Source: a virus. Taken from it: DNA of 34,350 bases. Shown one piece after another: positions 6,521 to 34,350 of this stretch. The stretch is taken from the UHGV virus genome UHGV-1648906; one strand, 5' to 3'. The notes beneath the pieces are model-generated. The model searched no databases. It was not told where the DNA came from and was given only the letters and a program-made list of their open reading frames with translations. Made by a program: the position numbers and the translations under genes. Position 1 is the first letter of the stretch. Every line of letters begins with the position of its first letter.

Positions 6521-6537
6521 TAATTAAACACCCCAGA

Positions 6538-6609: not shown

Positions 6610-6615
6610 GGATCT

Positions 6616-8504: not shown

Positions 8505-8520
8505 GTAAGTAATTATCTAA
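8503..8520. promoter_or_regulatory. intergenic palindromic element TAGGTAAGTAATTATCTA (terL-portal gap)
   Basis: One mismatch from the 11928-11945 copy; ends about 10 bp before the portal start codon. Confidence 0.5.
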
Positions 8521-8530
8521 GGTTATTCAA

Positions 8531-10105: not shown

Positions 10106-10126
10106 TAAGTAACAAAAGGAATTTTT

Positions 10127-11014: not shown

Positions 11015-11039
11015 CATCTAAATCAAAGGGAATTGATAG

Positions 11040-11918: not shown

Positions 11919-11927
11919 TCAGTGCAG

Positions 11928-11945
11928 TAGATAAGTAATTATCTA
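11928..11945. promoter_or_regulatory. intergenic palindromic element TAGATAAGTAATTATCTA
   Basis: Near-palindrome placed between the capsid gene stop and the terminator hairpin. Confidence 0.5.
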
Positions 11946-11949
11946 TGTT

Positions 11950-11980
11950 AAAGGGTGGGCTATACGCCCACCCTTTTTGT
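11950..11980 (+). terminator. rho-independent terminator after the major capsid gene
   Basis: 10-bp stem AAGGGTGGGC / GCCCACCCTT (11951-11960, 11966-11975), 5-nt loop, followed by TTTTGT. Confidence 0.8.
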
Positions 11981-11991
11981 AGGAGCGAGAA

Positions 11992-12912: not shown

Positions 12913-12956
12913 CCGATATTTGGCGGCTTTCGCCGCCCAAGTGGAGAGAAAGCGTT

Positions 12957-13391
12957 ATGAAACCAGCAAAAATTGTTTTATTAGAACCGCAATTTTCCGG
13001 TTATTCGGGAATGTTGTGCGGCGTTCAGTTCGAGAACGGGGTGTCCGTAGCGGAGTTGCCTTTTATCGATCAGCAAAGGATTTGTGCCTCAATGCGAGCA
13101 TCAACAGTCGAGGGCAAAAATGTTTCTCCGTCTGCCGCATACAGTGATCGTGGCGAGTTGACCGCAGACCTGATTACCGAGCCAGCAGCACCTGACATTG
13201 TACCAATGAAACGTGGGACACCAGATGAACCGGCCAAACAGATCCAGACTTTCACACGAGAAGAGTTGGAGTCAATTGCAGACAATGAAGGCATTGCCGG
13301 TCTACGTGTGATTGGTAATCAGGTTGGTGTCAAAGCGAAAGGAATTGTCGAGATGATTGAAGGCATCCTGAAAGCACAAGGCGGTGAGTAA
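12957..13391 (+). CDS. hypothetical structural protein (144 aa), head module
   Basis: ORF track; SD GGAGAG upstream; stop overlaps next start (TAATG). Confidence 0.5.
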   Translation: MKPAKIVLLEPQFSGYSGMLCGVQFENGVSVAELPFIDQQRICASMRASTVEGKNVSPSAAYSDRGELTADLITEPAAPDIVPMKRGTPDEPAKQIQTFTREELESIADNEGIAGLRVIGNQVGVKAKGIVEMIEGILKAQGGE

Positions 13392-16379: not shown

Positions 16380-16697
16380 ATGACCAAATTACTCGATCTC
16401 GACTCCATTCTGCCGCCGAAAAAAAGCATCAAATTTGGTGGCAAAGAATATCCCATCGTTGAAATGACCGTCGGCCTCTTTGTTTCCATCAAGCAGATGG
16501 AAGGCAAAGATCTCATGAACATGTCTCCTGTTGAGCAAGTGACAGCTTATGCAGATCTGGTTCGTAAGGTTATCCCTTCAGTACCTGACGAAGTTCTTGA
16601 AAAACTGACTGTTCCGCAACTCCAGCAGATCTTCACCTTCGCTATGGAAGTGATTGATGAAGAAAACGAAAAAGCGGCTGGCGAAGGGGCAAAGTAA
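16380..16697 (+). CDS. tail assembly chaperone (lambda gpG-like)
   Basis: 105 aa, acidic C-terminus, immediately upstream of the tape measure gene; a -1 frame ORF overlaps its 3' end. Confidence 0.65.
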   Translation: MTKLLDLDSILPPKKSIKFGGKEYPIVEMTVGLFVSIKQMEGKDLMNMSPVEQVTAYADLVRKVIPSVPDEVLEKLTVPQLQQIFTFAMEVIDEENEKAAGEGAK

Positions 16698-17047
16698 TTT
16701 CCCGCGATGAATCCGGGACAAGGACCGTCTCAATAGATCTCGGATTCTATTTCAGTCGTGTAGTTGCTCACTACGCCGTGTCGCCATTAGAGCTACTGAA
16801 CGTTCCTCTCACGATGTTCTGGATGCTCAGTCGCAATATAGACCGTCTGCGTGCGGAAGAGGATGTCCGCAACTTACAAGTCGCTCGTGCGTCCCAGGCG
16901 GATGGCGAGGCTGTGAAGGCGTTCATGGAGGGTTTGCAACTCAGGATTGGAAGACCAGTCGTAACAGATAAAGTCTACGATCCAAGCCAGGATAAGGCAG
17001 ACCCTGACGCCAAAGAGCAACTGATGCAAATATTTGGCAGAGGATGA
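16661..17047 (+). CDS. -1 frame extension (gpT-like part of a G-T frameshift fusion chaperone)
   Basis: The -1 frame is open from 16661, overlaps the last 37 nt of the G-like gene and ends at 17047, just before the tape measure start; A-rich run GAAAAAG at 16668-16674 is a possible slip site (not a canonical heptamer). Confidence 0.5.
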   Translation, partial: RKRKSGWRRGKVISRDESGTRTVSIDLGFYFSRVVAHYAVSPLELLNVPLTMFWMLSRNIDRLRAEEDVRNLQVARASQADGEAVKAFMEGLQLRIGRPVVTDKVYDPSQDKADPDAKEQLMQIFGRG

Positions 17048-20000: not shown

Positions 20001-21578
20001 CAGGCAGCGCAACAGAAATTGGCAGCCGGATACCAGAAGGCTCTGGACAAAGCCGATCAGCTTATGGGGCAAATGGGTGAAAGCTCTAAGGCTACGGTAT
20101 CGTTTGATCAGTCTCTTCGCGATACAACGAAATCGCTGACTGATTTGGCTAATGCGGTTCCTAACGAGTTCATCACTCAAGAGATGATCGACAAGGCGAA
20201 AAAACGTCTTGAAGACCTTAAAAATGCGACACCTGAATATCGCGAGATGTTTAATCGCCGCAATGTTGAGCAGATGATCTCCACTTGGGCACCGGAGGCG
20301 GATTCCATTATTAGTGCTGGCTATACGCCGTCTCGCGAAGAGAAAGTTGCTGATTTCGAAGACACCTACAACCGCAATCTCAAAGCGTTGATAGAACTTC
20401 GTGATAAGGCGTCTGATCCTAAAGTTGTGGCGCTTTATACAAAGAAAATCAATCAACTGATTGCTGCTGGCAATACCGCGCTTATTAAAGAGACGGGGAC
20501 TGCGACGCAGAAGTTGGCTCTGGAGTATGAGAACCTGGCTGAGCAGATTGAGGGCACCTGGACAGATCTGTTTAGCGGCTTAACTGACACGCTTACTGAC
20601 TTTGTTGTTAACGGAAAGATGAGCTTCTCCAGTCTGGCCACATCGATCCTTAAAGACATCACCAACATGGTCGTGAAGACCCAGATCACTCTGCCTCTCA
20701 TGAATATGTTGGGAATGGGAACGACAAACGCCGGCAATGCACAAAGTGGAAATCTCATGAATAGCGTAGCGTCTGCGATCGCTAATCAAGGGGTTCAGCT
20801 AGGTAATTCTGGTGGGTCGGTGGCCAATGGGGATAAATCTGTCGGCGAGGCCACTAAGGAGACAGCCTCCGGCGTGAATTCGATGGGGCAAGCGTCTCAG
20901 AATGCGGCCAGTGGTTTAAGTCAGGCGGTGAATGGCGTCTGGGACTGGACTAAGTCATTGTTCACCGGTACTGACGCTACGAAAGATCAAACCAAAGCGG
21001 TTAACAGCAGCATCCTCAGTATGGGGAATCTGTCTACTGCGGCTGGGGCGCTGGCAGCTACATTCGCCATGGTAGGTGCTTCGTCGTCGAGTTCGTCCAG
21101 CCGTTGGCTGAATTTCGGTCTGTCACTGGCCAGTACCGCAGTGTCCGCCTGGGCTGGGTCTTCGACGCCATCAGGCTCAAAGCCAAATGTGAAGAAGCAC
21201 GCCAATGGCGGCATCTTTGGCAGGGAAGGGGTTGTGCCTCTGAGAGCTTATCAGAAAGGCGGAATTGCCACCTCACCACAGTTGGCGATGTTTGGCGAGG
21301 GCTCAATGAACGAGGCTTACGTTCCGTTGCCAGATGGTCGAACCATTCCAGTCACACTTTCTGCAGAGTCGGCTGGAAAGAGCACGGGTAACGCGGTGTC
21401 CCCTGTCTCGATTCAGATCAATGTAACCAAGGATGGCCGAACCAGCGAGAGCAGCAGTGGAAGCGAGAGCAGTCTCTGGAACGGCGCAGCACGGCAAATC
21501 AAGTCGATTGTGCTTGAGACGATTGCCGAAGAGAAACGTTCTGGTGGTTCACTTAATCCGCATACCACCAGAGGGTAG
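17055..21578 (+). CDS. tail tape measure protein
   Basis: 1507 aa from ATG 17055; long helical/coiled-coil N-terminal part, central hydrophobic Gly/Ala-rich segment (around AAMVAFKLMRAGIMGVVGAGSQ), position after the G/GT chaperones. Confidence 0.9.
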   Translation: MSQNVEFILSLEDKQFTASIDRAGKLLTRFGEQVTKPAQKIQTFERSLGSVARIIGVLESKLDSTADKLQDVAAGFELASDATRKMRGNITSLNSGLKALIERVDTTTSSVDKLTASLRKVQSELNDFSDWATYASKSASRFGTEVKEASASVSGMNTRLNTTTKRLSNWGVTTSQAAEGLKKVREQMDEVIGRQQLISKPVRVRTSGSGDGGSGRRSGASGHSGKSNEGGMFSGLRGNIFLLGEIGDAARTVTDIMFGWQKPIVEAAAEMERMRVMLRGLNKEKSNPGQAAADDMKYIVDMAQNAPFAMQALTDSFVKFRSAGLDPTDGSLKALVDSVARFGGDSELLKRAAVAVQQMSGKGVVSMEELRQQLGEAVPNAMQAMADAAGITMGELTKAVASGTVEAKQALSLMFVGLRAENENAAKDMMQTYTGALAQLQTSFTLFADRVGQAGYLDSLSKGMKELASIMNSAEGISFANSLGSGLTTAIDGLRQLAQWLAKNQELVINLGKVVAAMVAFKLMRAGIMGVVGAGSQMVSTFATMATAIQTPFNLGATAVTRFNRAARMGLAPIPSLIFAIRGAITGLKGAFAGLTAFIAANPIGAAFTVATVAVAGLITYMTMLRSETSKVVDEIRKIPEAMTAAKRAQMADRAEKLEKQILADQRALKTGEGVNYVSNSAGVITHKESKADIEARLKKNQEEYQKITGTIALGDGAVAKRLAKEAAESQIEKIRAENQIFAATFVKARQEALDKIQKINDDGSLSDDEKNKLLAPLRETVNKSYLEPAQKLVDSLSSRKNATEKQIATLNDQLEKAKKDGNTEQIQKLQGSIRGYQENLEVVAQELTQAEFERDNAAKTGKGVMSNQGTVLGLGTTDKAAQKALAQYMRNQMDSATYQRTLPDGTPMMDFEGKPIIGPKQLKTQLNLQKASSASSLEKMSDEERAAAIAALTKAREQDAAAAEKAAQRSANASQRAAKKEQAAQQKLAAGYQKALDKADQLMGQMGESSKATVSFDQSLRDTTKSLTDLANAVPNEFITQEMIDKAKKRLEDLKNATPEYREMFNRRNVEQMISTWAPEADSIISAGYTPSREEKVADFEDTYNRNLKALIELRDKASDPKVVALYTKKINQLIAAGNTALIKETGTATQKLALEYENLAEQIEGTWTDLFSGLTDTLTDFVVNGKMSFSSLATSILKDITNMVVKTQITLPLMNMLGMGTTNAGNAQSGNLMNSVASAIANQGVQLGNSGGSVANGDKSVGEATKETASGVNSMGQASQNAASGLSQAVNGVWDWTKSLFTGTDATKDQTKAVNSSILSMGNLSTAAGALAATFAMVGASSSSSSSRWLNFGLSLASTAVSAWAGSSTPSGSKPNVKKHANGGIFGREGVVPLRAYQKGGIATSPQLAMFGEGSMNEAYVPLPDGRTIPVTLSAESAGKSTGNAVSPVSIQINVTKDGRTSESSSGSESSLWNGAARQIKSIVLETIAEEKRSGGSLNPHTTRG

Positions 21579-21621: not shown

Positions 21622-21957
21622 ATGTCGAGGAAAGTATTTAATTGGTATCCAGATTATGAGTCTGAGAAAACCGTAAAGCCTAACGTGATCGTGCTGAACT
21701 ACGGCGACGATTACGAGCAGCGCCAGTCGCAGGGGCTCAATCGGATTAAAGAAGAGTGGTCTCTCACGTTCACCCGTAGCCATGACGTGGTAAACGACGT
21801 TGATGACTTTTTGACTGCCCGCGCTGGGGTGGAGTCATTCATTTGGACTAACCCAAGAGGCAAAGCAATTATCGTGGTTTGTGACAGCCATACGGTAAAG
21901 CGTTACCCCGGTTATCAAGTGCTTACGGCAACATTTAGACAGGTTTTTGAGTCTTAA
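21622..21957 (+). CDS. minor tail protein M (lambda gpM-like)
   Basis: 111 aa from ATG 21622 (SD AAGGAAG); motifs NYGDDYEQRQSQGLNRIKEEWSLTF and ESFIWTNP parallel lambda gpM (FGDGYSQR...GLN...SFLWTPP). Confidence 0.85.
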   Translation: MSRKVFNWYPDYESEKTVKPNVIVLNYGDDYEQRQSQGLNRIKEEWSLTFTRSHDVVNDVDDFLTARAGVESFIWTNPRGKAIIVVCDSHTVKRYPGYQVLTATFRQVFES

Positions 21958-21966
21958 CTTGCGACT

Positions 21967-21990
21967 ATAGATAAGTAATTACTTATCTAT
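21967..21990. promoter_or_regulatory. perfect 24-bp palindrome ATAGATAAGTAATTACTTATCTAT
   Basis: Identical on both strands; sits in the M-L intergenic gap directly before a hairpin. Confidence 0.55.
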
Positions 21991-22000
21991 TATCATATAT

Positions 22001-22030
22001 CAACGTCACATCCTGTGACGTTGAGTTTTT
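22001..22030 (+). terminator. terminator-like hairpin inside the tail-tip operon (M-L gap)
   Basis: 10-bp stem CAACGTCACA / TGTGACGTTG with 3-nt loop, followed by AGTTTTT. Confidence 0.5.
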
Positions 22031-22043
22031 CAAGGATGAAGTG

Positions 22044-22742
22044 ATGGGTATTAGAGCTGATATTCAGAGTTTATCGCCTTCTGCGCTCATTGAGTTGTTC
22101 GAGCTGGATATGTCGGTGACAACCTCCGGCGGCAAGTTGTATTTCCATGCCGGCACCAACGGGCTTAGCCAGCCAATTATCTGGCAGGGAGTTTCCTATG
22201 AGCCGTGGCCAATTAAAGCGTCTGGCTTTGATAAAAGCGGTCAGGGAACACTTCCTCGTCCAAAGATTCAGGTTTCCAACTACGACGGTGTAATTTCTGC
22301 CGAGCTGCAGGCCAATGACGATCTGATTGGCTGCAAGATCATTCGCAAGATGACGCTGGCACGTTTTCTGGACGCGGTGAACTTTCCGGATGGAAACCCG
22401 ACCGCAGACCCAAGTCAGCATTTTGCTGATGAAATGTGGTTCGTCGAACAGAAGACCCTGGAGACGCACCAGTATGTCGAATTCGAGCTGTCCAGCGTCT
22501 TAGATCTGATGGGCGTTCAACTGCCGTATCGTCAGATCATCAAAAACAGCTGCCCGTGGAAATATCGCGGAACAGAGTGTGGCTACACCGGCCCCTATTT
22601 CGACAAAAACAACCAGCAAACCTCTTTGGCCGGCGCCGACTACTGCACCAAGCGTTACGACGCCTGTAATGCTCGCCGCAACTACTTCGCGAATGGCGTT
22701 ATTCATTTTGGCGGATTTATTGGGGCGACACGATATGAGTAA
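22044..22742 (+). CDS. minor tail protein L (lambda gpL-like)
   Basis: RFLDAVNFPDGNPTADP matches lambda gpL RFLDAVNFVNGNSYADP; Cys cluster CPWKYRGTECGY...C..RYDAC; SD AAGGA. Confidence 0.85.
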   Translation: MGIRADIQSLSPSALIELFELDMSVTTSGGKLYFHAGTNGLSQPIIWQGVSYEPWPIKASGFDKSGQGTLPRPKIQVSNYDGVISAELQANDDLIGCKIIRKMTLARFLDAVNFPDGNPTADPSQHFADEMWFVEQKTLETHQYVEFELSSVLDLMGVQLPYRQIIKNSCPWKYRGTECGYTGPYFDKNNQQTSLAGADYCTKRYDACNARRNYFANGVIHFGGFIGATRYE

Positions 22743-23532
22743 CCAGACGTTACCTGAGCTGGGCTCAGAAGTCATGCAGGATATCTATCGCTGCGCTATC
22801 CAACGTTACCCGAATGAAGCGTGTGGCTTTCTTGTGCGCACACAGGGTGAGAAATATCGCTTTATGGAAGCGATGAATGTCTCTGAAACGCCACGTGAGG
22901 ATTTTGTCATGCGTGCCAGCGACATTATTGCGGCCGAAGATGCTGGGGAAGTGATCGCTATTTGGCACTCTCACGTTGAGCGCAGCGCAGAGGCGTCAGA
23001 CCCGGATCGCTCCGGGTGCGAGGCGACGGAACTACCGTGGATGATTCTGGCAATTCGCAAAAATGTGGAAAGCGATATGCCATTCCACTTTAGCGAAATG
23101 AACGTCATTTATCCGTGTGGTTTTGAGATGCCCTACCTCGGGCGCCCATACGTATTCGGTGTGTTTGATTGCTGGATGCTGTGCCGCGATTACCTAAAGC
23201 GTGAATTTGACGTTGAGCTGAATGCAAACGCCCACCTGCATATTCCTTCCTGGTACACGGGGGACAACGACATCCTCGACCAGAACTACCGAAATGAAGG
23301 ACTTGTCCGCATGGCGCCGGGGACGGAACCCCAGCGCGGCGACATCTTCTTCATCCAGTACGGGAAAATGCCAGATCACTGCGCGGTATACATCGGCGAC
23401 GGCATGATCATGCATCACCAGATCGACCGTCTCAGCTGTCGGGCTTATTACGGTGGGATGTATCAGAAGCACACGACGCATCACCTGCGTCACAGGGATT
23501 TACTCAAGGGAGACGAGACGTGTCTGAATTAG
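22735..23532 (+). CDS. tail assembly protein K (MPN/JAB domain plus NlpC/P60 domain)
   Basis: MPN-like AIWHSHVERSAEASDPD (H-x-H...S..D); NlpC/P60-like Cys/His segment FDCWMLCRDY ... HCAVYIGDGMIMHH; start overlaps the L gene stop. Confidence 0.85.
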   Translation: MSNQTLPELGSEVMQDIYRCAIQRYPNEACGFLVRTQGEKYRFMEAMNVSETPREDFVMRASDIIAAEDAGEVIAIWHSHVERSAEASDPDRSGCEATELPWMILAIRKNVESDMPFHFSEMNVIYPCGFEMPYLGRPYVFGVFDCWMLCRDYLKREFDVELNANAHLHIPSWYTGDNDILDQNYRNEGLVRMAPGTEPQRGDIFFIQYGKMPDHCAVYIGDGMIMHHQIDRLSCRAYYGGMYQKHTTHHLRHRDLLKGDETCLN

Positions 23533-24131
23533 TTCATGTTCAGCTCGGCGGTGCGATGGCAAAGAACTTTGGCCGCCACTGGAAATTGAAGGTGCGCAAC
23601 ACCAAACAAGCCATCGATTTGATTGAGGCGAATCGCCCGGGCTTTAAAGCCTGGATTAAGCGTAACCGTAACCACTTCGATAAGTACCACATCCAGGTCA
23701 CAAATAAGCAGGGCCACAAGTGGTCAATGGACGACACCGAATACCAGATGATGGGCGAGTCGGAAAATATCGCAAAAATCCGCATTACTCCCGTACCACG
23801 TGGCAGCGGTGGTAAGGCGTTTGGGTGGTTCCAGACTTTCGTTGGCGCCGCGATGATCGCTGTCGGCGCTCTGGCCTCTGGGCTGACTTTTGGTGCGTCT
23901 TCCGCGCTGGTGATGGGAGGGATGTCATTGATGATGGGCGGTGTGTCCATGCTGATTTCGCCGCAGGCATCAAATGCGTCTGTCAGACAGGCGGATAACA
24001 CGGATTCGTTTTATTTCGATGGGCCTCAAAACACCAGCAACCAGGGAAACCCGGTTCAGCTTAATTACGGCGAGGAAATTTTAGTTGGCTCACAGATTGT
24101 GAGTTCTTCAATCACCATAGACCAACTGTAA
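23520..24131 (+). CDS. tail assembly protein I (lambda gpI-like)
   Basis: GTG start with SD AAGGGAG; C-terminal glycine-rich hydrophobic segment GAAMIAVGALASGLTFGASSALVMGGMSLMMGG; position between K and J. Confidence 0.75.
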   Translation: MSELVHVQLGGAMAKNFGRHWKLKVRNTKQAIDLIEANRPGFKAWIKRNRNHFDKYHIQVTNKQGHKWSMDDTEYQMMGESENIAKIRITPVPRGSGGKAFGWFQTFVGAAMIAVGALASGLTFGASSALVMGGMSLMMGGVSMLISPQASNASVRQADNTDSFYFDGPQNTSNQGNPVQLNYGEEILVGSQIVSSSITIDQL

Positions 24132-24141
24132 GGGAAGTTTT

Positions 24142-25740
24142 TTGAACATGTATCAGTTCAAGAAAAAGAGATTGCCCCTCCTGATTGCGGGAGCGGGCGG
24201 CAAAAAGAGCTCAGGCTCAAGCCGTACACCAGTTGAAGCGGATGATACCGTTAATTCGCGGGCCATGGCGTCTATCCTCGATCTGCTCGGGGAAGGTGTT
24301 GTTGGTGGGCTTATTAACGGTGCTAAATCTATCTTCATCGATGGCGTGGCGCTGGAGAACGAAGACGGATCATTCAACTATTCCGGTGTAACCTGGGATT
24401 TCCGGGATGGTTCACAAGACCAAAGCCCGATGCCTGGTTTCGATTTTGTCGAAACGCCAAAGGCCGTTAACACACAGCTGAAAACCACAAACGCGGTTAC
24501 GGTCGCCATCGATAACGACGACGCTGATCGTGTCCGAGTGATCATGAAGTTCCCGTCGCTGCGTAGCATTGACAAGAAAACAGGGGACACAAACGGTACT
24601 TCTGTCCAGTTTAAGTTCCAGCTGGCCAATGGCAATGGCTCTTTCTATGACGTGATTGCTACAGGTGAGAGCAGCTCTGACGTGAAGCTGACTGCGAAAA
24701 AGACTGGTGTCTACTACCGCAGTTACGAAATCCAACTTCCAAAGCCTGGGCGCGCCTATAAAGTGCGCGTGCTTCGTCTCTCCGCCGACAGCAACGATCA
24801 GTATCTCTTTAACGATACCTGGGTCGACTCTATCGGTGAGATCGTTGACACCCCAATGAACTACCCGAACTCCGTTCTGGTTGGCCTTAAGGTTAACTCT
24901 GAGCAGTTTGGTAGCTCTATGCCGTCACGTTCGTATCTTATCCGTGGCCTCAAAATCCGTGTGCCTTCGAATTATGATGAAAATACGAACACTTATAACG
25001 GCGTTTGGGATGGAACCTTTAAGCTTCTGTCGTCTTCCAACCCTGCCTGGATTCTGTTCGATCTGCTGACCAATGCTCGTTACGGCCTCGGCAAATTTGT
25101 TTCGGAGTCAATGATTGACCTTGGCCAGCTTTATCAGATCGGTCGCTACTGCGACGAAGAGGTTGATGATGGCTTTGGCGGCAAAGAAAAACGCTTTGCA
25201 ATCAACACCCAGATCACCAGTCGTCAGGACGCTTATCGTCTGATTCAGGATATTGCCGGCGCTTTCCGTGGCATGGTTTTCTGGGCTGGTGGTATGGTGA
25301 ATATCATGCAGGACAGCCCGTCTGACCCTGTCATGCTCTTTACCAATGCGAACGTAAAAGATGGCCTGTTTACCTATAAAGGCTCAGCTCGAAAAGACCG
25401 GCCGTCCGTAGCGTTGATCACTTATAACAACAAACAAGACGGCTATAAGCAGAACGTTGAGTATGTTGAAGATCAGGAAGCGATGGCCCGATACGGGGAG
25501 CGCAAGACCGAGGCCGTTGCGTTCGGGTGCACCAGCCGAGGTCAGGCTCATCGTGTAGGTTTGTGGCTGCTCTATACCGCGCGTATGGAGTCAGACATGA
25601 TCACCTTTACCGCGGGCCTGGACGCCTCGTTCCTGATGCCGGGCGAAACCGTTCTGATTCAGAACAAATATCGTGCCGGCAAACGCAATTCCGGTCGCAT
25701 TGTCTCTCGATGCACCTGTCTCTCTGAAAAAGAGCGGTAG
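24142..25740 (+). CDS. host specificity (tip attachment) protein J-like, N-terminal part; reading frame ends prematurely after an apparent frameshift
   Basis: Recalled lambda J similarity: GVTWDFRDGSQDQSPMPGFD, PNSVLVGLKVNSEQFGS, FGCTSRGQAHRVGLWL, KYRAGKRNSGRI; the frame-1 stop at 25738-25740 follows a short out-of-frame tail (SRCTCLSEKER). Confidence 0.85.
   Translation: MNMYQFKKKRLPLLIAGAGGKKSSGSSRTPVEADDTVNSRAMASILDLLGEGVVGGLINGAKSIFIDGVALENEDGSFNYSGVTWDFRDGSQDQSPMPGFDFVETPKAVNTQLKTTNAVTVAIDNDDADRVRVIMKFPSLRSIDKKTGDTNGTSVQFKFQLANGNGSFYDVIATGESSSDVKLTAKKTGVYYRSYEIQLPKPGRAYKVRVLRLSADSNDQYLFNDTWVDSIGEIVDTPMNYPNSVLVGLKVNSEQFGSSMPSRSYLIRGLKIRVPSNYDENTNTYNGVWDGTFKLLSSSNPAWILFDLLTNARYGLGKFVSESMIDLGQLYQIGRYCDEEVDDGFGGKEKRFAINTQITSRQDAYRLIQDIAGAFRGMVFWAGGMVNIMQDSPSDPVMLFTNANVKDGLFTYKGSARKDRPSVALITYNNKQDGYKQNVEYVEDQEAMARYGERKTEAVAFGCTSRGQAHRVGLWLLYTARMESDMITFTAGLDASFLMPGETVLIQNKYRAGKRNSGRIVSRCTCLSEKER
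25695..25712 (+). other. frameshift junction within the J-like gene (TCTCTC dinucleotide run)
   Basis: Frame 1 reads GRIVSRC then stops; frame 2 reads LSLDAPVSLKKSGSFIRI and continues as the J-like protein; the sequence at the junction is GTCTCTCGATG. Confidence 0.6.
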
Positions 25741-28700
25741 CTTCATCCGTATCATCAATCAGGAAGGCAAAATCGTTGAGCGAGACATCAACGAGACCGG
25801 CGACAACATCACTAAAGTTACCTTCAAGACGGCGTTGGCCACAGCCGATCAACCAGTAGCGAATGGCGTCTGGACGATCACCGAACCAGACCTTGTTCCA
25901 ATGCGGGCGCGCGTTGTCGCTATCGCGCAAGGTGAAACCCCGGGGTCGTTTGATATCACGGTGGTGCAGAACAATGCATCTAAGTACCAGGCGATTGATA
26001 ACGGGGCCGCGCTCGTTCCAGAAAATACGACGGTTCTTGATCCCACATATTCCAAACCGAGCAACCTGGTCATCTCAGAAGGCACCTATCTGTCCAGTCC
26101 GGGCAACTTGTCCGTGAAGCTGATGCTTGCCTGGGAAGGTAAATCACCAGAATACTGGGTCAGCTGGCGCCGCTCCGACGAGGGCAACGTCTCCAACTGG
26201 CAATCTGCCCGCGCCACGGAAGAACAATATGAAATCGTCAATGTTGCCGAAAATGGGCGATATGACTTCCAGCTGTATTCCGTTTCCTTCGGCGGCAAAA
26301 AATCCGAGATCATTACTGCTGTCTATCAGGTAAAAGGCACGATGACGCCGCCAGGGGCGCCCACATCACTCACCGCGGTGGGGGATTATCGTAACGTGGT
26401 ATTGAATTGGGTTAACCCTGATTCAGTCGACCTCGCGCAGATCAACGTGTATGCGTCCAAAACAAATAAGCTGGACACCGCAACACTCATTGCTCAGGCT
26501 GCAACAACGACTTTCACTCACGCTGGCCTGGGTGACAACGAGACCTGGTATTACTGGATTCGTGCGGTAAACAAACGTGGGATGGTAGGCCAGCCGAACT
26601 CGAACCTCGGTACAGAGGCCACCACTCGCGACGTATTGTCTTTCCTGAAAGATAAGATCACATCTTCTGAACTCGGCAAGGAGCTGCTCGACGAAATCGA
26701 CAGCAAAGCCACTCAGGAGGCGGTAGACAACGCCATTGGCGAGGTTCAGAACTCAGTCAACGAGTCTATCCAGCAAGTTGAAAACGATCTGGCGCAAACC
26801 TCCTCCGAAATTAAGGCGCAGGTTGACTCTGTCAATCAGTCGCTGAAAGAGGATATAAAGACCGTCAATCAGACGATTGTTGACAACATCGATACCGTCA
26901 ACCAGACGATCAATACCAACATCTCCAACGTAAACAGCCAAATTGAAGCTGCAAAACAGTCTATTAAAGACGGCGACGCGGCTCTGTCGCAGGAGATTAA
27001 GAATGCGCAGTCATCACTGACAACGTCGCTGTCCCAGACCAGCAAAGATCTGACTGCGGCCATTCAGAAAGAGACGAATGACCGTATTGCAGATGTTAAT
27101 GACGCAGCCAAGCAAGCGGCCGACCAACTGCTGAGCGCGAAGAATGAGCTGAAAACCTCTATCGATAGCTTGTCTGAGGTTGTGACCTCCGGTGACGAAA
27201 ACCTCGCGCGACAGATCTCGCAGATTGCCGCTGGCACAGGGGAACAGTTTGACTCTCTGAAAATCTGGTATTTCGACCAGGACGCTGAAGGCTGGACGGA
27301 AGATGATAATGGCTACACGCCAATGAGCGTCACCAGCGATGGCTGGCTGAAAGCGAACAATCCGACCTCAACCTGTCGTTCCCCTAACGGCTTGACGATC
27401 GATGCCCATGCTTATCGTTTCATTAAGATGCGCATTAAAAAGGTTGGCAACCCAACCTGGAACGCCAAAATGTTCTGGATCGGCGCTGATGAAACCGGCT
27501 GGAATGCTGGTCGCTCCGTGGTTATCAATGAACCGGAATACGATGACAAGGGTATTGCGATTCTGACCCTGCACGACATTGAGTGGCGAGATTCGACAAC
27601 GATTCGTCGTTTCCGCTTCGATTTCACTTCAGGTCAGGATGCGGACAATTACCTGTTATTCGACTGGATCGCCGTCGGTCGACCGACGCCGGGCGCAGGC
27701 ATGGCCGCGTTACAGGAAGAGCAGCAGGCTCGTGCGAATGCAGATACCGCCGAAGCGCAGGCGCGCAGCACATTGGCTGCACAAATCCGCGGTTCCTCTG
27801 AAAGCGGAAATCTGGACGACATTCGCTCCGGTCTGATCTATCAGGAGAAAAATGCTCGTATCACCGCCGATGCTGCGGAAGCGAGTGCGCGTGAATCCCT
27901 GCAGACTGAATTCAACAGAAACAAAGCCTCTGTTGCAGAAGAGCTGCATACGCTGTCCACTGAACAAGCTTCCCAGGCAAGCAAGATTACCGGGTTGCAA
28001 ACAAGCCTTGGCCAGAAGGCCGATGCCAGTGCAGTACAGACAATTTCCCAGAAGGTTGAAGAGCAGGGCAACACCCTTAAATCACAAGGTGCGGCATTGT
28101 CTACGCTGGATAATCGCGTAGGAAGTGTTGAGTCTGGTGTGTCTGCGAATAGCAAGGCGATCACGGGTCTGCAGTCGACCGTAACCCAGCAGGATAAAAC
28201 CCTTAGCAGCCAGAGTGAAAGCATCACCACCCTGAATAACTCGCTGAGCGATATCCAGAGCGATACCGATACTGCCAAAAGCAATCCGAGCAATTTGCTG
28301 GTTAACGCCTCCTTTGAGCGTGACCTGGCAGGGTGGTCTGCAGGGAACAGCGTATCCAATGTTATCAAAGCGAGTGCGCCCCATTCTGGTAGCAAAATTC
28401 TTGTTTGCGCCGCTGGCACGGTGCAAATCACGCAATCTGTAAGCGTCGTCGAAGGGCGGACATACAAGCTGTCCTCTTTTGTGCGCTGCACCACGGATGC
28501 GGTAATCAGCAGCCCTGGCAACAACAAACTGCGTATTGGCGCAGCCACGTTGCTCAAAGAGATTCCGATCCGTCCGGAGAATCTGCCCAAAGATGAAACA
28601 TGGAAAGAGATCTCTGATACCTGGAAGGCGACGCTGACCGGTAAAGTTGACGTATCGATCATGTCTTCTCTCAAAACCGGTTCTCAGTACTTCGATGATA

Positions 28701-31700
28701 TTGGTTTTGTTGACGTCACTGATGCTCTGGCGATTGAGGCGAACGCCAGTGCCACCAATGCTTTGACCTCTCGGGTATCGTCTGTTGAGGGCACCATCAC
28801 AAGTCAGGGGCAACAGATCACTTCGATGCAGAACAGTATCAAGAACAAAGCTGACGCCTCAGCTGTGACTAATCTGACAAACCGCGTAACTGCTGCCGAA
28901 AATCAGATCTCCAGCCAGTCCCAGAGCATCACCAGCCTGTCAAATTCGCTGGATAACGCCAATGCTGATGCGGATGCCTCGAAAGCGATCATCGGCAACA
29001 TGCTCAAAAACAACTCTTTTGAACGTGGTTTCGAAGGTTGGGAGTATGTTGGTTGGACTCTGCTGGAGGCCCAAAACCCCAAATCGGGGAAATACATCAT
29101 CCAGGCGGGCAAACTGGCCTCTGGCGGTGACTCGGGCTGCAACCAAACGATCGAGCTGCAGGCTGGCAAGACTTATCGTATCGGCGCATGGGTTCGCAAA
29201 TCCGCTGACTTCGCGATCAATAATGCCGGCAACAACAAAATTAGCCTTCGAAACGCAGATCTGACGCCGATAAAGGATATCCCGATCACTGGCGCTGGGC
29301 TGTCGACGAACTGGGCGCTTATTAGCGGCGAGTATACGCCAGCCAAAACCGCCAGCGTGGTTGTGTCTCTGCGTGCAAGTGTCGCTTCCGGCTATATGTA
29401 TCTCGATGACGTCTTCTGCGTTGACGTGAGCAATGAGAAAGCGATTGATGCGACGTCCAATGCGTTATCAACCCTCAACAGCACCGTGACCCAGCAGGGA
29501 AAAGACATTACGTCTAACTCCAACAGCATCACTTCGCTGTCAAACCAGATGGTTAACGGCCGCCAGAACATGTGGGTGCGTAGCGTATACAACGTACAAC
29601 TGGCGAACAATACCACTGAGCCGACCTTTAGCGATATCAACGGTAAGGCGCCAATCTCGATCGATGAGGTTCCTGACGCGGCAAAACTGGACTTTGCGAG
29701 CGCCGGCAGTTACGTGATCGCGCATTACAAAGCCTTCGTGAAAGTCAATGCTGATACCACCATCACTATGGCACCAGGGGCTCGTGTTTTTGATGATACG
29801 GGCGCCGTGTACGTGAACGGTGTTAGGGTTGCCTTTGGTAATGCGAGCTGGAATACGGTTAGCTTTGATCTGAAAGCTGGCTGGAGCACGGTTGAGTTCT
29901 TGGTGAACCAATGGACTGGTCAGGCTTACATTAACCTCGGCTTTAAACTGTCCGAGAAGGTAGCCCAGCTGAATTCTGCTCTTGGGATGAACGCGCTTTC
30001 GAATGCCATTAGCGCCGTCACCTCAAACGTCAGCACCGTAGGTGATCGCGTCACGAGCACCTCACAGAGCGTTACTGACCTGCGAAATAGCCTCGAACAG
30101 ACCAACGCAAATCTAGCGAATAAGGCAGATGCACAGGCGCTGTCTACGCTGCAAAATACGGTCTCCAAGCAGGGGGATACGATTTCCAGCCAGGGTAACA
30201 GCATCACGAACCTGAATAACACCCTGACCGCTGCCAGAAACGCCGGTGACAACCTGATCCCGAACTACGATTTCCTGCAGGGTGCAACTGCGTGGGATAC
30301 CCAGTATCCGGCGGGCGTCACTTTCGGCAACTTCGGTGATGGTAAGGCTGGGGTTAAGCTGAACCGGACGACCACTACCAGCCCAGGCATCTTCTCCAAC
30401 AACAACAAGCCGCTGCCGCTTAATGGTCAGCGCAAATATCGTGTTGTGGTTAAAGCCAAGGGCGTGTCCGGGGCGATGAACATGTTGATCCGGCGCCAGA
30501 ACAAAATCGGCCAGACCGACAGCAATTATGAAGATAAAAACGTCACACTCACCAGTGAGTGGCAGACCATTACCTGGGAAACTGGGCTTACTGCCTCTAA
30601 CGCTGATGGCCAGAACTTTAAGCTTTACGCGCACCCGGCTAATGCCGAAATCTGGGTTGATACCTTTAAGGTCTTTGATATCACGGATGAGGTGAAGATC
30701 AAGGCTAATAGCGATGCGCTGTCTACGTTGTCGAGCACGGTGACGCAGCAGGGTGACAAGATCACCAGTCAGGGCAACAGCATCACTAAGTTGACCAATG
30801 ACCTCGAAGTCGCTGACGCAAACATCGCGAAAAAGGCCGATCAGTCGGCAGTCACTACGCTGACAGGTCGGGTAGAGAAGACGGAGTCCGGTCTGACGGC
30901 GGCGAACAGCAACATTACGTCGCTCAGCAGCTCTCTGAACCAGCAATCCAAACGCGGCGCCAATCTGCTTCCTGATGGCACTTTTGAAAGCTACGCGGTT
31001 GGCCATAATCTATCAAATAATCGCGTTATCGTGACCACTGATGACTCGCATGGCGGTAGTAAGTGCATCCGTGTGACGCGTCCGAATGATTACAACGCTA
31101 ACGCAACTGATAACAGCGATAATCACATTTTCAGCGGGTTCCAGGTTCGCGATAACGCAGTCTTCTATATGGAATGCTGGGTTAAGCTGGATGCCAAGAG
31201 CACCGCTATGGCCGAGAATGCGCAGATCTCCATTGGCTTGTCGCTCCAGTATCAGGATAACTCCTGGCAGTGGCCAGCAGTAACCAAAGCGGCGAAAGAT
31301 CTGTCTACAGCTCAATGGACGAAGGTTTCTGGTTACCTGAAATCAACGAAGAGCGGTATTAAGCAGGCAATGGTGAGGATTTCTATTCCTAACGTTAGCA
31401 GCGTTAAGGCGGGAAACTCATTCCTCATTGATGACCTGGTCATTACCGAAGTGACTGATGCCTACAATGCGCAAAGTACAGCAGACGCTAATGCCAATGC
31501 GATTTCGACACTGGACTCGACCGTCTCCCAACAGGGTGACCAGATCACCAGTCAGGGTAACAGCATCACCAAACTGACAAATGACCTGGCAACGACCAAT
31601 AACAACGTCAGTAAAAAAGCGGATCAGAGCGCTTTAAGCGTGTTGTCCGGGCGCGTCGATCAAACAGAATCGGGCTTATCCTCTGCGAATAGCAGTATCA

Positions 31701-34350
31701 CTGCGCTTAATTCATCTGTACGCGCAGGGAATGCGACAAGTGGCGATTTGATTAGCAACCCGACATTTGACCCAGAGTTTAGTCAGATGGGCTTCACTGT
31801 GGTTTCCAGCTCGTCTGAGGGCGTGCCAGCCAATTGCCCATACGCTTATGTTGCACGCATTGCGGCTCGCGACCATCACCCCAATTTTGCTGCTATTCCG
31901 GCGACATTGGGGGATGTCTATGAAATGTCTGCTCTCGTCGCGTGTGGCACCGGCTCCGCTGATTTCAACCTGTATCTCGGAACCGCAACACGGCCAAGCG
32001 GCAGCATGGGCGCGCCTCTGTCATCCGGCGGCAACCGCAAGGCGTCGGCCACATGGCAGCGAGTAACCTGGCGATTCAAAATTACTCAGGGGATTGTCGA
32101 TCGCGGCTTCTTCCGTCCATTCCTGCAAATTAACCAGTCCAGCCCATTCGGCACCGTCTGGTATGTGACTGACTGGCATCTGCGGAACGTAACCGACTCC
32201 TCCAAAGTCCAGGATTCCCTCGACGCCACGGCGAAAGCGGTTGATTCGCTGACCTCTACGGTAAATCAGCAGGGGGAGAATATCTCCAGCATTGGTACAC
32301 GTACTACCAATCTTGAGAATAATTTGAGAACAACAAATGCAAACGTTGCTCAAAAAGCGGACGCCAATGCTCTGACGGCACTGACCAACCGTGTTACCCA
32401 GACCGAAAAAGACATTAACTCAACGAGTTCTTCTGTCACGAATCTGAACAACAAGGTTGATGCCATTTCTGTTGGCGGTACAAACCTGATTAAGAACTCT
32501 GGCGATATGACCGGCTGGTCGAACGTTACCAGCGACACGTATCGTGGTAACGCGGTAATTGGCGCAACTGTAAAAGCCGGCTCCGGCTACAAGGATCTGC
32601 GGGAAATCACGCTTGAGTCGCCGGTCGATGCAGGTGAGTACGTTTACAGCTTCTATGCAAAAGGCGGTGTTGCTGGCCAGATTATGACGGCGTTCTTCTA
32701 CAATCCGAACACTACAACGTCTATCGAGACCAGCCAGGGTGCGAAAGGTAACAACAGTGATGGCCGTGCGCAGTTCACGCTGACCACTTCATGGTCCCGC
32801 TATTGGGTTAAGTGGAAACAGACACCTACCACGAGTACCAAGCGCCTGATTCTGTGTCGTATCGAGAGCAATACCTCCAAAGACCAGACGGTGTACATCA
32901 ACAGTCCGAAGTTTGAGGTAGGTAACGTTGTTTCCGACTGGAACGAGTCTCCGTCTGATAGTGCCAGTGCGTCGGCTGTGGACTCGCTGACAACGAAAGT
33001 GAATCAGCAGGGCACTTCCATTAGCTCTATCGGAAATCGCACCACATCGTTGGAAAACGGGTTATCGACAGCTCAAAACAACATTGCCAAGAAGGCTGAT
33101 GCTTCTGCATTGCAGGATCTCCGGAACACGGTGACATCTCAGGGTGATGATTTAACTGCGGCGAACAGCAGCATTACCAGCCTGCATGCCTCGATGAACC
33201 GTCGCACTGTGTTTACTGTCACTGCACGGGGTAATGGCAACAGCGTTACCCATGGGGTGTTTGATGAAAGCGGCAAGAACCTGTTTACCCCTGGTCGCAG
33301 TTGGGCGCTGGTCACTTTTGCAAAACACAGCGATGGATCAACGGTGATTGCGACCTCCAAAACATACGATGTCTTTGGCAGCGCGAATAATGGCGCCACG
33401 ATGTCGGCCGATATCGAGGCGTTGGCCAGTGGGACTTACGTTTGTGTCCTGACATTCGATGAGCCAACTGGCAACCGAGGTAAGGTATTGTCTGCCCTGG
33501 AATCTCTTGGTGGTACATCCGAAATCGTCAACTCTCTGCCGTATCGTGGTGCCTATATTCTTCTTGGCCGCAAAGGCATGAAGCCGGGCGATGGTCTGGA
33601 ACTTCGTGCGCCTACCGGTGGCGACGGCACCGCCCACATTTCGACCTCAGTCGAGTTTGTGAACGGGGTAATGATGGGACTGGGCGCCGCCGGCGGTGTG
33701 ATGATGAAGGCTGATGCGAACGCGTCGGCAATTACCACGCTCCAGAACACAGTGAAGACCCAGGGGGATAATATTGACTCCCTGAGCTCCTCGACAACGG
33801 CGCTGGAAAATAGCCTTGCGTCCAGTAAAGCCAGCGTGGATGCAGCAAGCCAGATCCCCGGGAATCTGATCGTAAACCCGTCTTTTGAACGTGGTACGGA
33901 GGGCTACACTGGTTGGAGCGGTATTGCCACGGTGGCAACGCTGCAGGTTCCACATCTTGGCACCAAAGCCGCCAAACTAGCGGCGGGTGGTTCTGCAGGC
34001 GTGGGCCAGAAGATCTCCTTCAAAAAGGATCGGTCGTACAAAATTGGTATTTGGGCAAAGCAGGACCCTAATACCACCATTCAGTCGACCGACAACACAA
34101 AATTCCGTGTGGCTGACGGTACTGGCCTGATTGCAAGTAAGGTTTATGGTCCGTTCACCTCGAACTGGCAGGAGGTGTCATGGACATGGAAGGCGACAAA
34201 GGATGTCCTTGCTGACGTTCAGTTCACTGCTTTCTTGTCAGCCGGCGCGATGTACTTTGATGATTTTTACGTCGTCGATGTGACCGACTCAGTTGAAACT
34301 CAGGCGAACTCGAGTGCGATCACGAAGCTCGATAGTCGTGTGACCAAGAC
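25700..34350 (+). CDS. continuation of the J-like host specificity protein, fused to a giant central tail fibre (partial, open to window end)
   Basis: Frame 2 has no stop from 25658 to 34350; contains a fibronectin-III-like segment and the lambda J-like motif KITSSELGKELL (26650-26700), then coiled-coil linker repeats and beta-sandwich modules. Not in the ORF track because it lacks a stop in the window. Confidence 0.8.
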   Translation, partial: MSLDAPVSLKKSGSFIRIINQEGKIVERDINETGDNITKVTFKTALATADQPVANGVWTITEPDLVPMRARVVAIAQGETPGSFDITVVQNNASKYQAIDNGAALVPENTTVLDPTYSKPSNLVISEGTYLSSPGNLSVKLMLAWEGKSPEYWVSWRRSDEGNVSNWQSARATEEQYEIVNVAENGRYDFQLYSVSFGGKKSEIITAVYQVKGTMTPPGAPTSLTAVGDYRNVVLNWVNPDSVDLAQINVYASKTNKLDTATLIAQAATTTFTHAGLGDNETWYYWIRAVNKRGMVGQPNSNLGTEATTRDVLSFLKDKITSSELGKELLDEIDSKATQEAVDNAIGEVQNSVNESIQQVENDLAQTSSEIKAQVDSVNQSLKEDIKTVNQTIVDNIDTVNQTINTNISNVNSQIEAAKQSIKDGDAALSQEIKNAQSSLTTSLSQTSKDLTAAIQKETNDRIADVNDAAKQAADQLLSAKNELKTSIDSLSEVVTSGDENLARQISQIAAGTGEQFDSLKIWYFDQDAEGWTEDDNGYTPMSVTSDGWLKANNPTSTCRSPNGLTIDAHAYRFIKMRIKKVGNPTWNAKMFWIGADETGWNAGRSVVINEPEYDDKGIAILTLHDIEWRDSTTIRRFRFDFTSGQDADNYLLFDWIAVGRPTPGAGMAALQEEQQARANADTAEAQARSTLAAQIRGSSESGNLDDIRSGLIYQEKNARITADAAEASARESLQTEFNRNKASVAEELHTLSTEQASQASKITGLQTSLGQKADASAVQTISQKVEEQGNTLKSQGAALSTLDNRVGSVESGVSANSKAITGLQSTVTQQDKTLSSQSESITTLNNSLSDIQSDTDTAKSNPSNLLVNASFERDLAGWSAGNSVSNVIKASAPHSGSKILVCAAGTVQITQSVSVVEGRTYKLSSFVRCTTDAVISSPGNNKLRIGAATLLKEIPIRPENLPKDETWKEISDTWKATLTGKVDVSIMSSLKTGSQYFDDIGFVDVTDALAIEANASATNALTSRVSSVEGTITSQGQQITSMQNSIKNKADASAVTNLTNRVTAAENQISSQSQSITSLSNSLDNANADADASKAIIGNMLKNNSFERGFEGWEYVGWTLLEAQNPKSGKYIIQAGKLASGGDSGCNQTIELQAGKTYRIGAWVRKSADFAINNAGNNKISLRNADLTPIKDIPITGAGLSTNWALISGEYTPAKTASVVVSLRASVASGYMYLDDVFCVDVSNEKAIDATSNALSTLNSTVTQQGKDITSNSNSITSLSNQMVNGRQNMWVRSVYNVQLANNTTEPTFSDINGKAPISIDEVPDAAKLDFASAGSYVIAHYKAFVKVNADTTITMAPGARVFDDTGAVYVNGVRVAFGNASWNTVSFDLKAGWSTVEFLVNQWTGQAYINLGFKLSEKVAQLNSALGMNALSNAISAVTSNVSTVGDRVTSTSQSVTDLRNSLEQTNANLANKADAQALSTLQNTVSKQGDTISSQGNSITNLNNTLTAARNAGDNLIPNYDFLQGATAWDTQYPAGVTFGNFGDGKAGVKLNRTTTTSPGIFSNNNKPLPLNGQRKYRVVVKAKGVSGAMNMLIRRQNKIGQTDSNYEDKNVTLTSEWQTITWETGLTASNADGQNFKLYAHPANAEIWVDTFKVFDITDEVKIKANSDALSTLSSTVTQQGDKITSQGNSITKLTNDLEVADANIAKKADQSAVTTLTGRVEKTESGLTAANSNITSLSSSLNQQSKRGANLLPDGTFESYAVGHNLSNNRVIVTTDDSHGGSKCIRVTRPNDYNANATDNSDNHIFSGFQVRDNAVFYMECWVKLDAKSTAMAENAQISIGLSLQYQDNSWQWPAVTKAAKDLSTAQWTKVSGYLKSTKSGIKQAMVRISIPNVSSVKAGNSFLIDDLVITEVTDAYNAQSTADANANAISTLDSTVSQQGDQITSQGNSITKLTNDLATTNNNVSKKADQSALSVLSGRVDQTESGLSSANSSITALNSSVRAGNATSGDLISNPTFDPEFSQMGFTVVSSSSEGVPANCPYAYVARIAARDHHPNFAAIPATLGDVYEMSALVACGTGSADFNLYLGTATRPSGSMGAPLSSGGNRKASATWQRVTWRFKITQGIVDRGFFRPFLQINQSSPFGTVWYVTDWHLRNVTDSSKVQDSLDATAKAVDSLTSTVNQQGENISSIGTRTTNLENNLRTTNANVAQKADANALTALTNRVTQTEKDINSTSSSVTNLNNKVDAISVGGTNLIKNSGDMTGWSNVTSDTYRGNAVIGATVKAGSGYKDLREITLESPVDAGEYVYSFYAKGGVAGQIMTAFFYNPNTTTSIETSQGAKGNNSDGRAQFTLTTSWSRYWVKWKQTPTTSTKRLILCRIESNTSKDQTVYINSPKFEVGNVVSDWNESPSDSASASAVDSLTTKVNQQGTSISSIGNRTTSLENGLSTAQNNIAKKADASALQDLRNTVTSQGDDLTAANSSITSLHASMNRRTVFTVTARGNGNSVTHGVFDESGKNLFTPGRSWALVTFAKHSDGSTVIATSKTYDVFGSANNGATMSADIEALASGTYVCVLTFDEPTGNRGKVLSALESLGGTSEIVNSLPYRGAYILLGRKGMKPGDGLELRAPTGGDGTAHISTSVEFVNGVMMGLGAAGGVMMKADANASAITTLQNTVKTQGDNIDSLSSSTTALENSLASSKASVDAASQIPGNLIVNPSFERGTEGYTGWSGIATVATLQVPHLGTKAAKLAAGGSAGVGQKISFKKDRSYKIGIWAKQDPNTTIQSTDNTKFRVADGTGLIASKVYGPFTSNWQEVSWTWKATKDVLADVQFTAFLSAGAMYFDDFYVVDVTDSVETQANSSAITKLDSRVTK
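27700..34350 (+). repeat. array of at least ten paralogous coding repeat units (coiled-coil linker type) within the fibre gene
   Basis: Peptide pattern A-x-S-T-L-x-S-T-V-T-Q-Q-G-D-x-I-T-S-Q-G-N-S-I-T-x-L-x-N; the DNA units at 30721-30810 and 31501-31590 are highly similar by eye, with identical runs such as GATCACCAGTCAGGG. Confidence 0.8.

Follow-up and report, generated by a model that had tools for sequence, protein, structure and literature searches.

A probable recent 23-bp deletion in the J-like tail-tip gene of an SSU5-type phage-plasmid

Two reading frames for one gene

In the UHGV virus genome UHGV-1648906, the 34,350-nucleotide stretch of DNA analysed here as a whole (hereafter the window), a J-like gene is split between two reading frames. 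This raises the question of whether the gene has been inactivated, has been misassembled, or is expressed through a change in frame or as two separate proteins. Frame 1 is open from position 24121 through 25737 and closes with a TAG codon at 25738-25740, and homology to relatives places the start of the gene at ATG 24148. Frame 2 is open from position 25658 to the end of the window at 34348, a run of 2,897 codons with zero stops that includes LDAPVSLKKSGSFIRIINQEGKIVERD.

Both pieces match one single protein in relatives. The 5′ piece comprises 520 amino acids that are 100% identical to residues 1-520 of WP_078207493 from pECAZ155_2, and the 3′ piece aligns over 2,884 amino acids at 99.3% identity to the relatives' protein with no stop and no gap. 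As judged from this homology, the two-piece pattern is not a product of chance. In the truncated gene, 520 native codons are followed by 10 that are out of frame (RCTCLSEKER) and then by the TAG. The J-like gene extends ~1.9 kb past the end of the window, and its 3′ part carries 64 synonymous and 18 non-synonymous differences from pECAZ155_2. An earlier note on this DNA had described both the frame 1 stop and the continuation in frame 2, which the frame analysis and the homology of the two pieces bear out, and it had put the interruption at about 25702-25712, where the junction was indeed found (between 25705/25706 and 25707/25708).

Features of the window at and near the interrupted J-like gene
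Feature	Coordinates	Strand	Basis
M-like, L, K and I tail-tip genes (21622-21957, 22044-22742, 22735-23532, 23520-24131)	21622..24131	+	99.6-100% amino acid identity; relatives' annotations; Pfam
5′ fragment, J-like tail-tip hub/central-fibre gene	24148..25740	+	Identity to WP_078207493; Pfam FNIII-A_GpJ, Phage-tail_3
Deletion junction	25705..25708	+	Alignments to pJN2-26, ST13-OXA48phi12.3, pECAZ155_2, GCA_026165005.1, GCA_034496925.1
3′ part of J-like gene, +1 frame	25706..34350	+	Residues 528-3408 of intact 4,052-aa protein
Out-of-frame tail of truncated product, premature stop TAG 25738-25740	25708..25740	+	Translation

A gpJ-like gene on a phage-plasmid

The J-like gene of relatives is one 12-kb ORF of 4,052 codons, and its product is a tail-tip hub joined to a giant central fibre. 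We evaluated gpJ-type homology by using as the query an intact relative that is 100% identical to the window across residues 1-520. This protein matches 8iyk_J with E = 1.6e-119 over residues 20-860 and the F2-pyocin fibre with E = 9e-127, such that the first ~860 residues of the protein align over their full length with lambda gpJ (tip attachment protein J; PDB 8IYK, 8K35 and 8XCG) and with the pyocin fibre (E about 1e-120 to 1e-127). Two Pfam domains of lambda gpJ-type proteins, FNIII-A_GpJ and Phage-tail_3, are present in the 5′ fragment of the window, and these proteins also share Phage_Tail_Tip (DUF1983) with the intact relatives, one of which carries it at residues 3776-3906, in the region past the window end. 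The J-like gene is positioned after the tape-measure gene and the M, L, K and I genes, the last four of which are intact and full length, and this M-L-K-I-J order is the same as that of lambda. However, lambda gpJ comprises only 1,132 amino acids, whereas the intact relative has 4,052 and includes a very long coiled-coil-like middle. By these comparisons, the J gene of the window is a member of the gpJ-like family by descent, as the earlier note had proposed from the sequence alone, but a disrupted copy. The continuous frame for hub, FNIII domains, fibre and receptor-binding end is not kept in the window, but is broken after codon 520.

The earlier note had also considered a decaying prophage. 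The element is not an integrated prophage: synteny and near-identity with ~110-kb circular extrachromosomal records that bear both virion and plasmid-maintenance genes identify the element, as far as its sequence can indicate, as a phage-plasmid of the well-known SSU5 type, ~110 kb in size and from the E. coli/Klebsiella lineage. The window is its virion-gene arm. Matches were obtained to 855 plasmid records (the best at 98.8% over 25 kb), and those in complete E. coli genomes lie only on plasmids, with 0 on chromosomes. The terminase-to-tail module is adjoined by ParB-type genes and a helicase, and synteny is full across the virion module and the ParB/helicase region with pJN2-26 (MZ779062, a Klebsiella phage), ST13-OXA48phi12.3 (MK422451) and E. 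coli pECAZ155_2 (NZ_CP019002), whose nucleotide identity to the element is 97.7-98.9%. In these three relatives the J-like ORF is uninterrupted at the site that is broken in the window.

The remainder of the window bears little resemblance to a decaying element, as evident by the fact that all 28 of the other comparable CDS are full length and that only 0-2 SNPs separate it from an isolate plasmid. Relative to pECAZ155_2, the 34 kb contain no other indels apart from two 1-nt differences in intergenic DNA and, in the tape-measure gene, a patch that is compensated; pECAZ155_2 also has one 84-aa ORF that is missing from the lineage of the window. In published work, mitomycin C led to packaging of some SSU5-like elements and one was inactive (PMC9600943); one Klebsiella element made no particles (PMC8969562).

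Nature and distribution of the lesion

Alignment to J genes of related phages, which the earlier note had proposed as a check, confirmed a frame break at this site but not the 1-nt or 2-nt slip (gain of one base or loss of a TC unit) that had been suggested as its cause. Slippage by a TC unit or one base is ruled out by these alignments, which show that 23 bp, CTTTCACCAAAAACAGCATCACC, are absent from the J gene of the window (codons 521-527, corresponding to the seven codons FTKNSIT plus 2 nt). The gap falls at the same nucleotides relative to each of five intact relatives. The join reads GTCT/CT/CGATG, and because of the CT microhomology of 2 nt its position can be shifted by up to 2 nt. Residues homologous to those encoded by the lost 23 bp are found in lambda gpJ, the F2-pyocin fibre and three other solved J-like proteins, and therefore the 23 bp are ancestral; an insertion in the relatives, as opposed to a deletion here, is ruled out by the same distant homologues. 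The ancestral site reads GTCTCTTTCACC..., and therefore the TCTCTC run exists solely through the deletion, as a product of the junction. The suggestion of a slippage-prone site thus has no support, given the origin of the run and the consistent frame at this position in hundreds of relatives.

We could assign no particular mechanism to the deletion, since by our calculation a 2-nt microhomology is expected at ~16% of random junctions. Promotion by repeats was rejected on these grounds, and promotion by a hairpin was rejected because the ancestral sequence does not fold more stably than shuffled sequences on either strand.

Among the sequences searched, the lesion is private to the window and one sister assembly. 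The frame across the site is continuous in 40 of 40 related loci that were fetched, and an intact-length site is likewise present in 15 E. coli plasmids and 6 phage records. Among the best 60 of 523 PLSDB records, the corresponding span is 624 nt (623 in one record), versus 601 in the window, and all 60 are less than 99% identical over the site. The 59-nt intact form of the junction pattern was recovered from 19/19 IMG/VR contigs and 19/19 metagenome contigs matched; a variable-gap pattern detected only this intact form in the two collections, and found no match in GTDB representative genomes. By exact-protein look-up, the truncated 530-aa product occurs on one contig only, scaffold_440 of ENA assembly ERZ28577453. 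A literature search on the sample accession (BioSample SAMEA4545344) gave no hit.

To look for J pseudogenes, we examined PLSDB rows lacking an annotation under the match. Two of these have the gene lying across the start of the record, which leaves it unlisted in the PLSDB gene table, and the part fetched carries no net frameshift. The others comprise one true 2-bp frameshift and one noisy assembly. The frameshift belongs to pUCLAOXA232-4 (NZ_CP012565), in which 2 bp are deleted at position 2326 of the 12-kb J-like gene, and the noisy assembly is CP050287, in which this gene carries seven 1-nt deletions typical of noisy long-read assembly; both records are from the same plasmid group as the element. 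Neither record has a lesion at the deletion site of the window. A noisy assembly is ruled out for the window, which has no other coding indel and full-length copies of the 28 other CDS.

Knockout, artefact or functional arrangement

The isolate contig ABJJAB010000009.1 (GCA_026165005.1) exhibits 0 mismatches over window positions 7055-31555 (24.5 kb) save the 23 bp, and 2 mismatches over positions 1-13163. The lesion appears to be single and very recent, as opposed to part of a general decay, because this isolate plasmid is identical over 24.5 kb bar the 23 bases and because the 8.6 kb downstream are still free of stops. The second, non-identical assembly (scaffold_440) has the same 23-bp deletion and two further deletions that are absent from the window: one of 148 bp at window positions 10378-10525, with 1-nt microhomology, in a DUF6651 head-module gene, and one of 4 bp at positions 27977-27980, corresponding to one unit of a GCAA tandem duplication, further down J. 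Neither of these is flanked by a long repeat. The ratio of one to three deletions to 0-3 SNPs is unusual for natural divergence.

Agreement between the two assemblies favours a real mutation over an artefact, and we infer that the deletion exists in the DNA and not in the assembly alone. We estimate a probability of roughly 70% that it is a real, very recent inactivating mutation, that is, an ordinary knockout. The earlier note had correctly set a sequencing or assembly error against such a mutation. The less probable of these two alternatives is that the plasmid in the sample carries an intact J gene and that the 23-bp gap was created when a scaffolder closed a gap, by a join at low coverage, or by a read that was chimeric or PCR-jumped. 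In its favour, the sequence comes from an assembled metagenome (its sister record carries the name METAG-scaffold_440), the deletion was encountered in no other sample in searches of phage, PLSDB, IMG/VR, metagenome and E. coli plasmid sequences, and SNP divergence from the intact isolate copy is zero. Scaffold_440 also has a 14-N gap inside the J-like gene. Together with its 148-bp and 4-bp deletions, this demonstrates that assemblies of this population can carry deletion-type discrepancies, which would reflect either heterogeneity of the sample or deletion errors made in assembling it. Furthermore, the window and scaffold_440 end at the same nucleotide, and so a common set of reads may underlie both, in which case they would not be independent. 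However, these assemblies agree on the 23-bp deletion while differing at the other two sites, which suggests support from reads, base-calling errors are not of the 23-bp type, and the rest of the window is without a coding indel. The breakpoints lack a repeat of k-mer length, and with a flanking homology of only 2 nt a repeat collapse in a de Bruijn graph would not be expected.

It is far more doubtful that the arrangement is functional, with a +1 ribosomal shift in the 25708-25740 overlap (e.g. at the TCTCTC or AAA-G sites) yielding a near full-length protein, or with hub and fibre made as two working proteins; we regard this as very improbable. Although the downstream frame is fully open and an AAA followed by G at 25729-25732 might allow tRNA-Lys to re-pair in the +1 frame, the open frame is explained by the recency of the lesion (0 SNPs to the isolate), and the deletion itself generated the TCTCTC run. 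A frame change or gene boundary occurs here in none of hundreds of relatives, leaving the arrangement private, and no conserved frame change or shift signal was evident among homologues, with a single frame in every relative checked. A shifted product would have 16 native residues of a conserved beta-sandwich replaced by 8 unrelated ones. Folding of positions 25664-25741 with DNA parameters gave a z-score of -0.35 relative to shuffles, so that no stimulatory structure was found near the shift site, and re-initiation is ruled out by the lack of a Shine-Dalgarno-like motif before any of the 12 start codons that frame 2 has between 25673 and 26396. Neither programmed frameshifting nor a working split into two genes thus finds support in these searches.

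If the 23-bp deletion is a genuine knockout, as we favour, the rest of the J gene would be shifted into the +1 frame, and the product translated from ATG 24148 would comprise 520 native residues and 10 aberrant ones before TAG 25738. The break site is equivalent to lambda gpJ residues about 498-506, which the alignment maps to the gpJ beta-sandwich 483-569 that is inserted in hub domain IV (HDIV; PMC10721106). With a break at this location, the product is predicted to lack the remainder of HDIV together with the FNIII domains, the entire fibre and the receptor-binding end. A functional tail tip and infectious particles would presumably be lost, and we agree with the earlier note that the J gene is needed for the latter. 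Plasmid replication and partition genes are untouched, and so the element can persist as a plasmid.

Should the deletion be an artefact, it would serve only to flag the quality of this metagenome assembly. In either case, current knowledge of J proteins and of frameshifting stands as it was. There is also an outside chance that this deletion is real and that the 148-bp and 4-bp lesions of scaffold_440 are real variants of a sub-lineage. The sample would then have caught a phage-plasmid shedding its virion genes through many small deletions in quick succession, while point mutations are nearly absent; if so, these would be the first steps of conversion to a plain plasmid inside one gut community. 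A real 23-bp deletion would mean that the present copy of this widespread E. coli/Klebsiella phage-plasmid can no longer build its tail tip and spreads only vertically as a plasmid. It would then offer a small data point on how phage-plasmids turn into plasmids, and a warning that contigs like this one should not be counted as intact phages.

A 23-bp deletion in the J-like gene

Matches to the window comprise 855 plasmid records, for the most part non-mobilizable Klebsiella and E. coli plasmids of ~110 kb, with pECAZ155_2 of E. coli matching best (98.8% over 25 kb). Among complete E. coli genomes, all 233 matches lie on plasmids and 0 on a chromosome. The annotated neighbours run from ParB-type genes and a helicase, through terminase, portal and capsid genes, to the tape measure and the tail-tip genes M, L, K and I, followed by a 12,159-nt ‘phage tail protein’ gene (4,052 aa). 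The element is a member of the SSU5-type phage-plasmid group (PMC7969092; PMC9600943).

The J-like protein of this group, at 4,052 aa, is more than three times the length of lambda gpJ, to which its first ~860 residues can be aligned (E = 1.6e-119). When intact, it carries FNIII-A_GpJ and Phage-tail_3 at the N-terminus, a long, coiled-coil-like middle, Phage_Tail_Tip at residues 3776-3906, and also an ILEI domain. Approximately 2,900 residues are coiled-coil-like and internally repeated, with weak hits to Apolipoprotein, SlyX and SF-assemblin.

An earlier note described a break in this gene at a TCTCTC run, and re-reading of both frames confirms that description: frame 1 closes soon after the junction, and frame 2 reads LDAPVSLKKSGSFIRIINQEGKIVERD..., matching the continuation proposed there. 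The lesion itself had been mis-sized as one extra base or a missing TC unit; alignment to relatives reveals a 23-bp deletion. Megablast with 24100-28300 returned six full-length phage-record matches (97.7-98.3% identity), each covering 4,224 bases versus 4,201 in the window, and base-level alignment with Klebsiella phage pJN2-26 and ST13-OXA48phi12.3 places a single 23-base gap in the window. Relatives read GCATTGTCT[CTTTCACCAAAAACAGCATCACC]CTCGATG at the site, and the window reads GCATTGTCTCTCGATG. The gap falls at identical nucleotides against pECAZ155_2 and two NCBI draft-genome contigs. Codons 521-527 (FTKNSIT) plus two bases are lost, which produces a +1 shift.

Residues of the FTKNSIT region are found in lambda gpJ and the F2-pyocin fibre, as well as in three further J-like proteins of solved structure, and therefore the event is a deletion in the window rather than an insertion in its relatives. 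Given the ancestral sequence GTCTCTTTCACC, the TCTCTC run is a product of the deletion and not its cause; its earlier interpretation as a possible slippage site was an over-reading. A CT dinucleotide flanks the deletion on both sides and leaves a two-base ambiguity in its placement. This microhomology is uninformative on mechanism, because by our calculation at least 2 nt are expected by chance at ~16% of random junctions.

Coordinates of features in the window and of differences from related sequences
Feature	Window position	Details
Intergenic 1-nt indels	1228 and 6513	relative to pECAZ155_2
Spacer	5224-5252	29 nt, in place of an 84-aa hypothetical gene of pECAZ155_2 (5646-5903 there)
Deletion in scaffold_440	10378-10525	148 bp, DUF6651 gene, 1-nt microhomology
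Tail-chaperone-like pair	16380-17047	-1 frame of the 105-aa ORF open from ~16664 to 17047
A-run of the pair	16668-16674	GAAAAAG
AAG-TAA of the pair	16692-16697	105-aa ORF ends TAA 16695-16697
Tape-measure patch	20330-20359	30 nt, five small indels relative to pECAZ155_2 that cancel, frame kept
Frame 1	24121-25737	stop TAG 25738-25740; ORF as listed starts TTG 24142, homology puts the start at ATG 24148
J-like gene	24148-34350	continues past the window end; 24798-36956 in pECAZ155_2
Minus-strand ORFs	25591-25930	55 aa and 107 aa
Frame 2	25658-34348	2,897 stop-free codons, open as far as the window's last complete codon
Junction of frames 1 and 2	25702-25712	within GTCTCTCGATG
Deletion in scaffold_440	27977-27980	4 bp, GCAAGCAAG to GCAAG, second frameshift in J
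Substitution in scaffold_440	33250	ancestral base in window, derived in scaffold_440

Recency, rarity and sequence context

An exact look-up of the window's tape-measure protein led to ABJJAB010000009.1, a contig from an isolate draft genome (GCA_026165005.1). It has 0 mismatches with window 7055-31555 besides the 23 bases and two with 1-13163, and its J-like gene is called intact at 4,052 aa. Upstream of the junction, codon differences in J between the window and pECAZ155_2 are 8 synonymous and 0 non-synonymous; downstream they are 64 and 18, from which the post-junction part evolved as coding sequence in what is now frame 2. The recency of the break, rather than a function still maintained, explains why the 8.6 kb beyond it stays open.

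The deletion is singular among the collections searched. A 601-base query spans 624 bases in the best 60 of 523 matching PLSDB records, with one spanning 623, and no PLSDB record reaches the 99% identity expected if the 23 bases were absent. The 624-base span recurs in each of the 15 full-length E. coli matches. A variable-gap pattern across the junction, able to match intact and deleted forms alike, found 19 IMG/VR and 19 metagenome contigs, all of the 59-base intact form, and had no match in GTDB representative genomes. All 40 fetched loci keep one reading frame across the site.

Across 34 kb, the window differs from pECAZ155_2 by ~390 substitutions, and indels are confined to the 23-bp deletion, the two intergenic changes and the compensated tape-measure patch. 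The isolate contig carries that patch unchanged, which marks the patch as a difference between lineages, not an error. The 28 other comparable genes are all full length and stop-free, with 97.9-100% amino-acid identity. The window's lineage lacks a counterpart to the 84-aa ORF of pECAZ155_2, and its neighbouring ABC-ATPase-like protein has 221 aa versus 212. The tail-chaperone-like pair resembles the common G/GT layout with its -1 frameshift; gene-caller annotations instead place a separate ORF of 74-77 aa there.

Deposited J-like genes are sometimes broken at sites other than that of the window, given that CP050287.1 has seven 1-nt deletions in this gene alone, a pattern typical of noisy long-read assemblies, and pUCLAOXA232-4 (NZ_CP012565.1) has a 2-bp deletion with a frameshift at gene position 2326. 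In OKVV01000701.1, the J frame stops ~8.6 kb past the site, sooner than in the reference.

Mutation, assembly artefact or recoding

Exact matching of the truncated 530-aa product identified a single record, a 39,565-bp metagenome scaffold (ENA ERZ28577453, COST17-1_SAMEA4545344_METAG-scaffold_440) that has the same 23-bp deletion, though it is not identical overall (Table). It ends exactly at window position 1, which makes it probable that the two sequences are distinct assemblies from a single population and perhaps from a single read set. The differences could reflect either a heterogeneous population or deletion errors by that assembly. We favor a real deletion, with a probability of roughly 0.7: the two sequences agree on it while differing elsewhere, 23 bp is not a type of base-calling error, and the breakpoints lack a flanking repeat of k-mer length, so graph collapse is not expected. 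Nevertheless, the gap is possibly an assembly fault, a less likely explanation to which several observations lend weight. The extra deletions of scaffold_440 and its 14-N gap ~580 bases past the window end indicate that assemblies of this population do carry deletion-type discrepancies, 1-3 deletions against 0-3 SNPs would be an unusual proportion under natural divergence, and the allele occurs in no other sample.

The proposal that the break is a ribosomal recoding site or a functional two-protein split does not hold up, for several reasons. None of the relatives shows a change of frame or a gene boundary at the site, and the putative slippery run is absent from the ancestral sequence. Wherever in 25708-25740 a +1 shift took place, 16 native conserved-domain residues would still be exchanged for 8 unrelated ones, none of the 12 frame-2 start codons in 25673-26396 is preceded by a Shine-Dalgarno-like motif, and folding of the local sequence shows no gain in stability over shuffled controls. 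The minus-strand ORFs are regarded as shadow ORFs, on the basis of 99-100% protein identity and synonymous-biased substitutions in the plus-strand frames over the same region. The 23-bp deletion is most likely a very recent knockout. Private and frameshifting, it affects an already described gene of a very common, already described phage-plasmid, and the finding is an ordinary one.

Expected consequences for the element

SSU5-like elements vary in activity: mitomycin C led to packaging of most of those tested but not of one (PMC9600943), and one Klebsiella element produced no phage particles (PMC8969562). FTKNSIT aligns with lambda gpJ residues 498-506, and residues 483-569 form a beta-sandwich inserted between strands beta24 and beta25 of hub domain IV (HDIV; PMC10721106), a domain termed the core of the gpJ hub domains (PMC11101478). 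Therefore, the 530-aa product should end inside this insertion. It would be left without the remaining HDIV strand(s), the linker, FNIII-1, FNIII-2, the whole fibre and the receptor-binding end.

Lambda J is needed for tail-tip assembly and adsorption. By this analogy, infectious particles would not be expected from the element in the window if the deletion is real. Its ParB-type genes and helicase are intact, and its persistence as a plasmid should therefore be unaffected.
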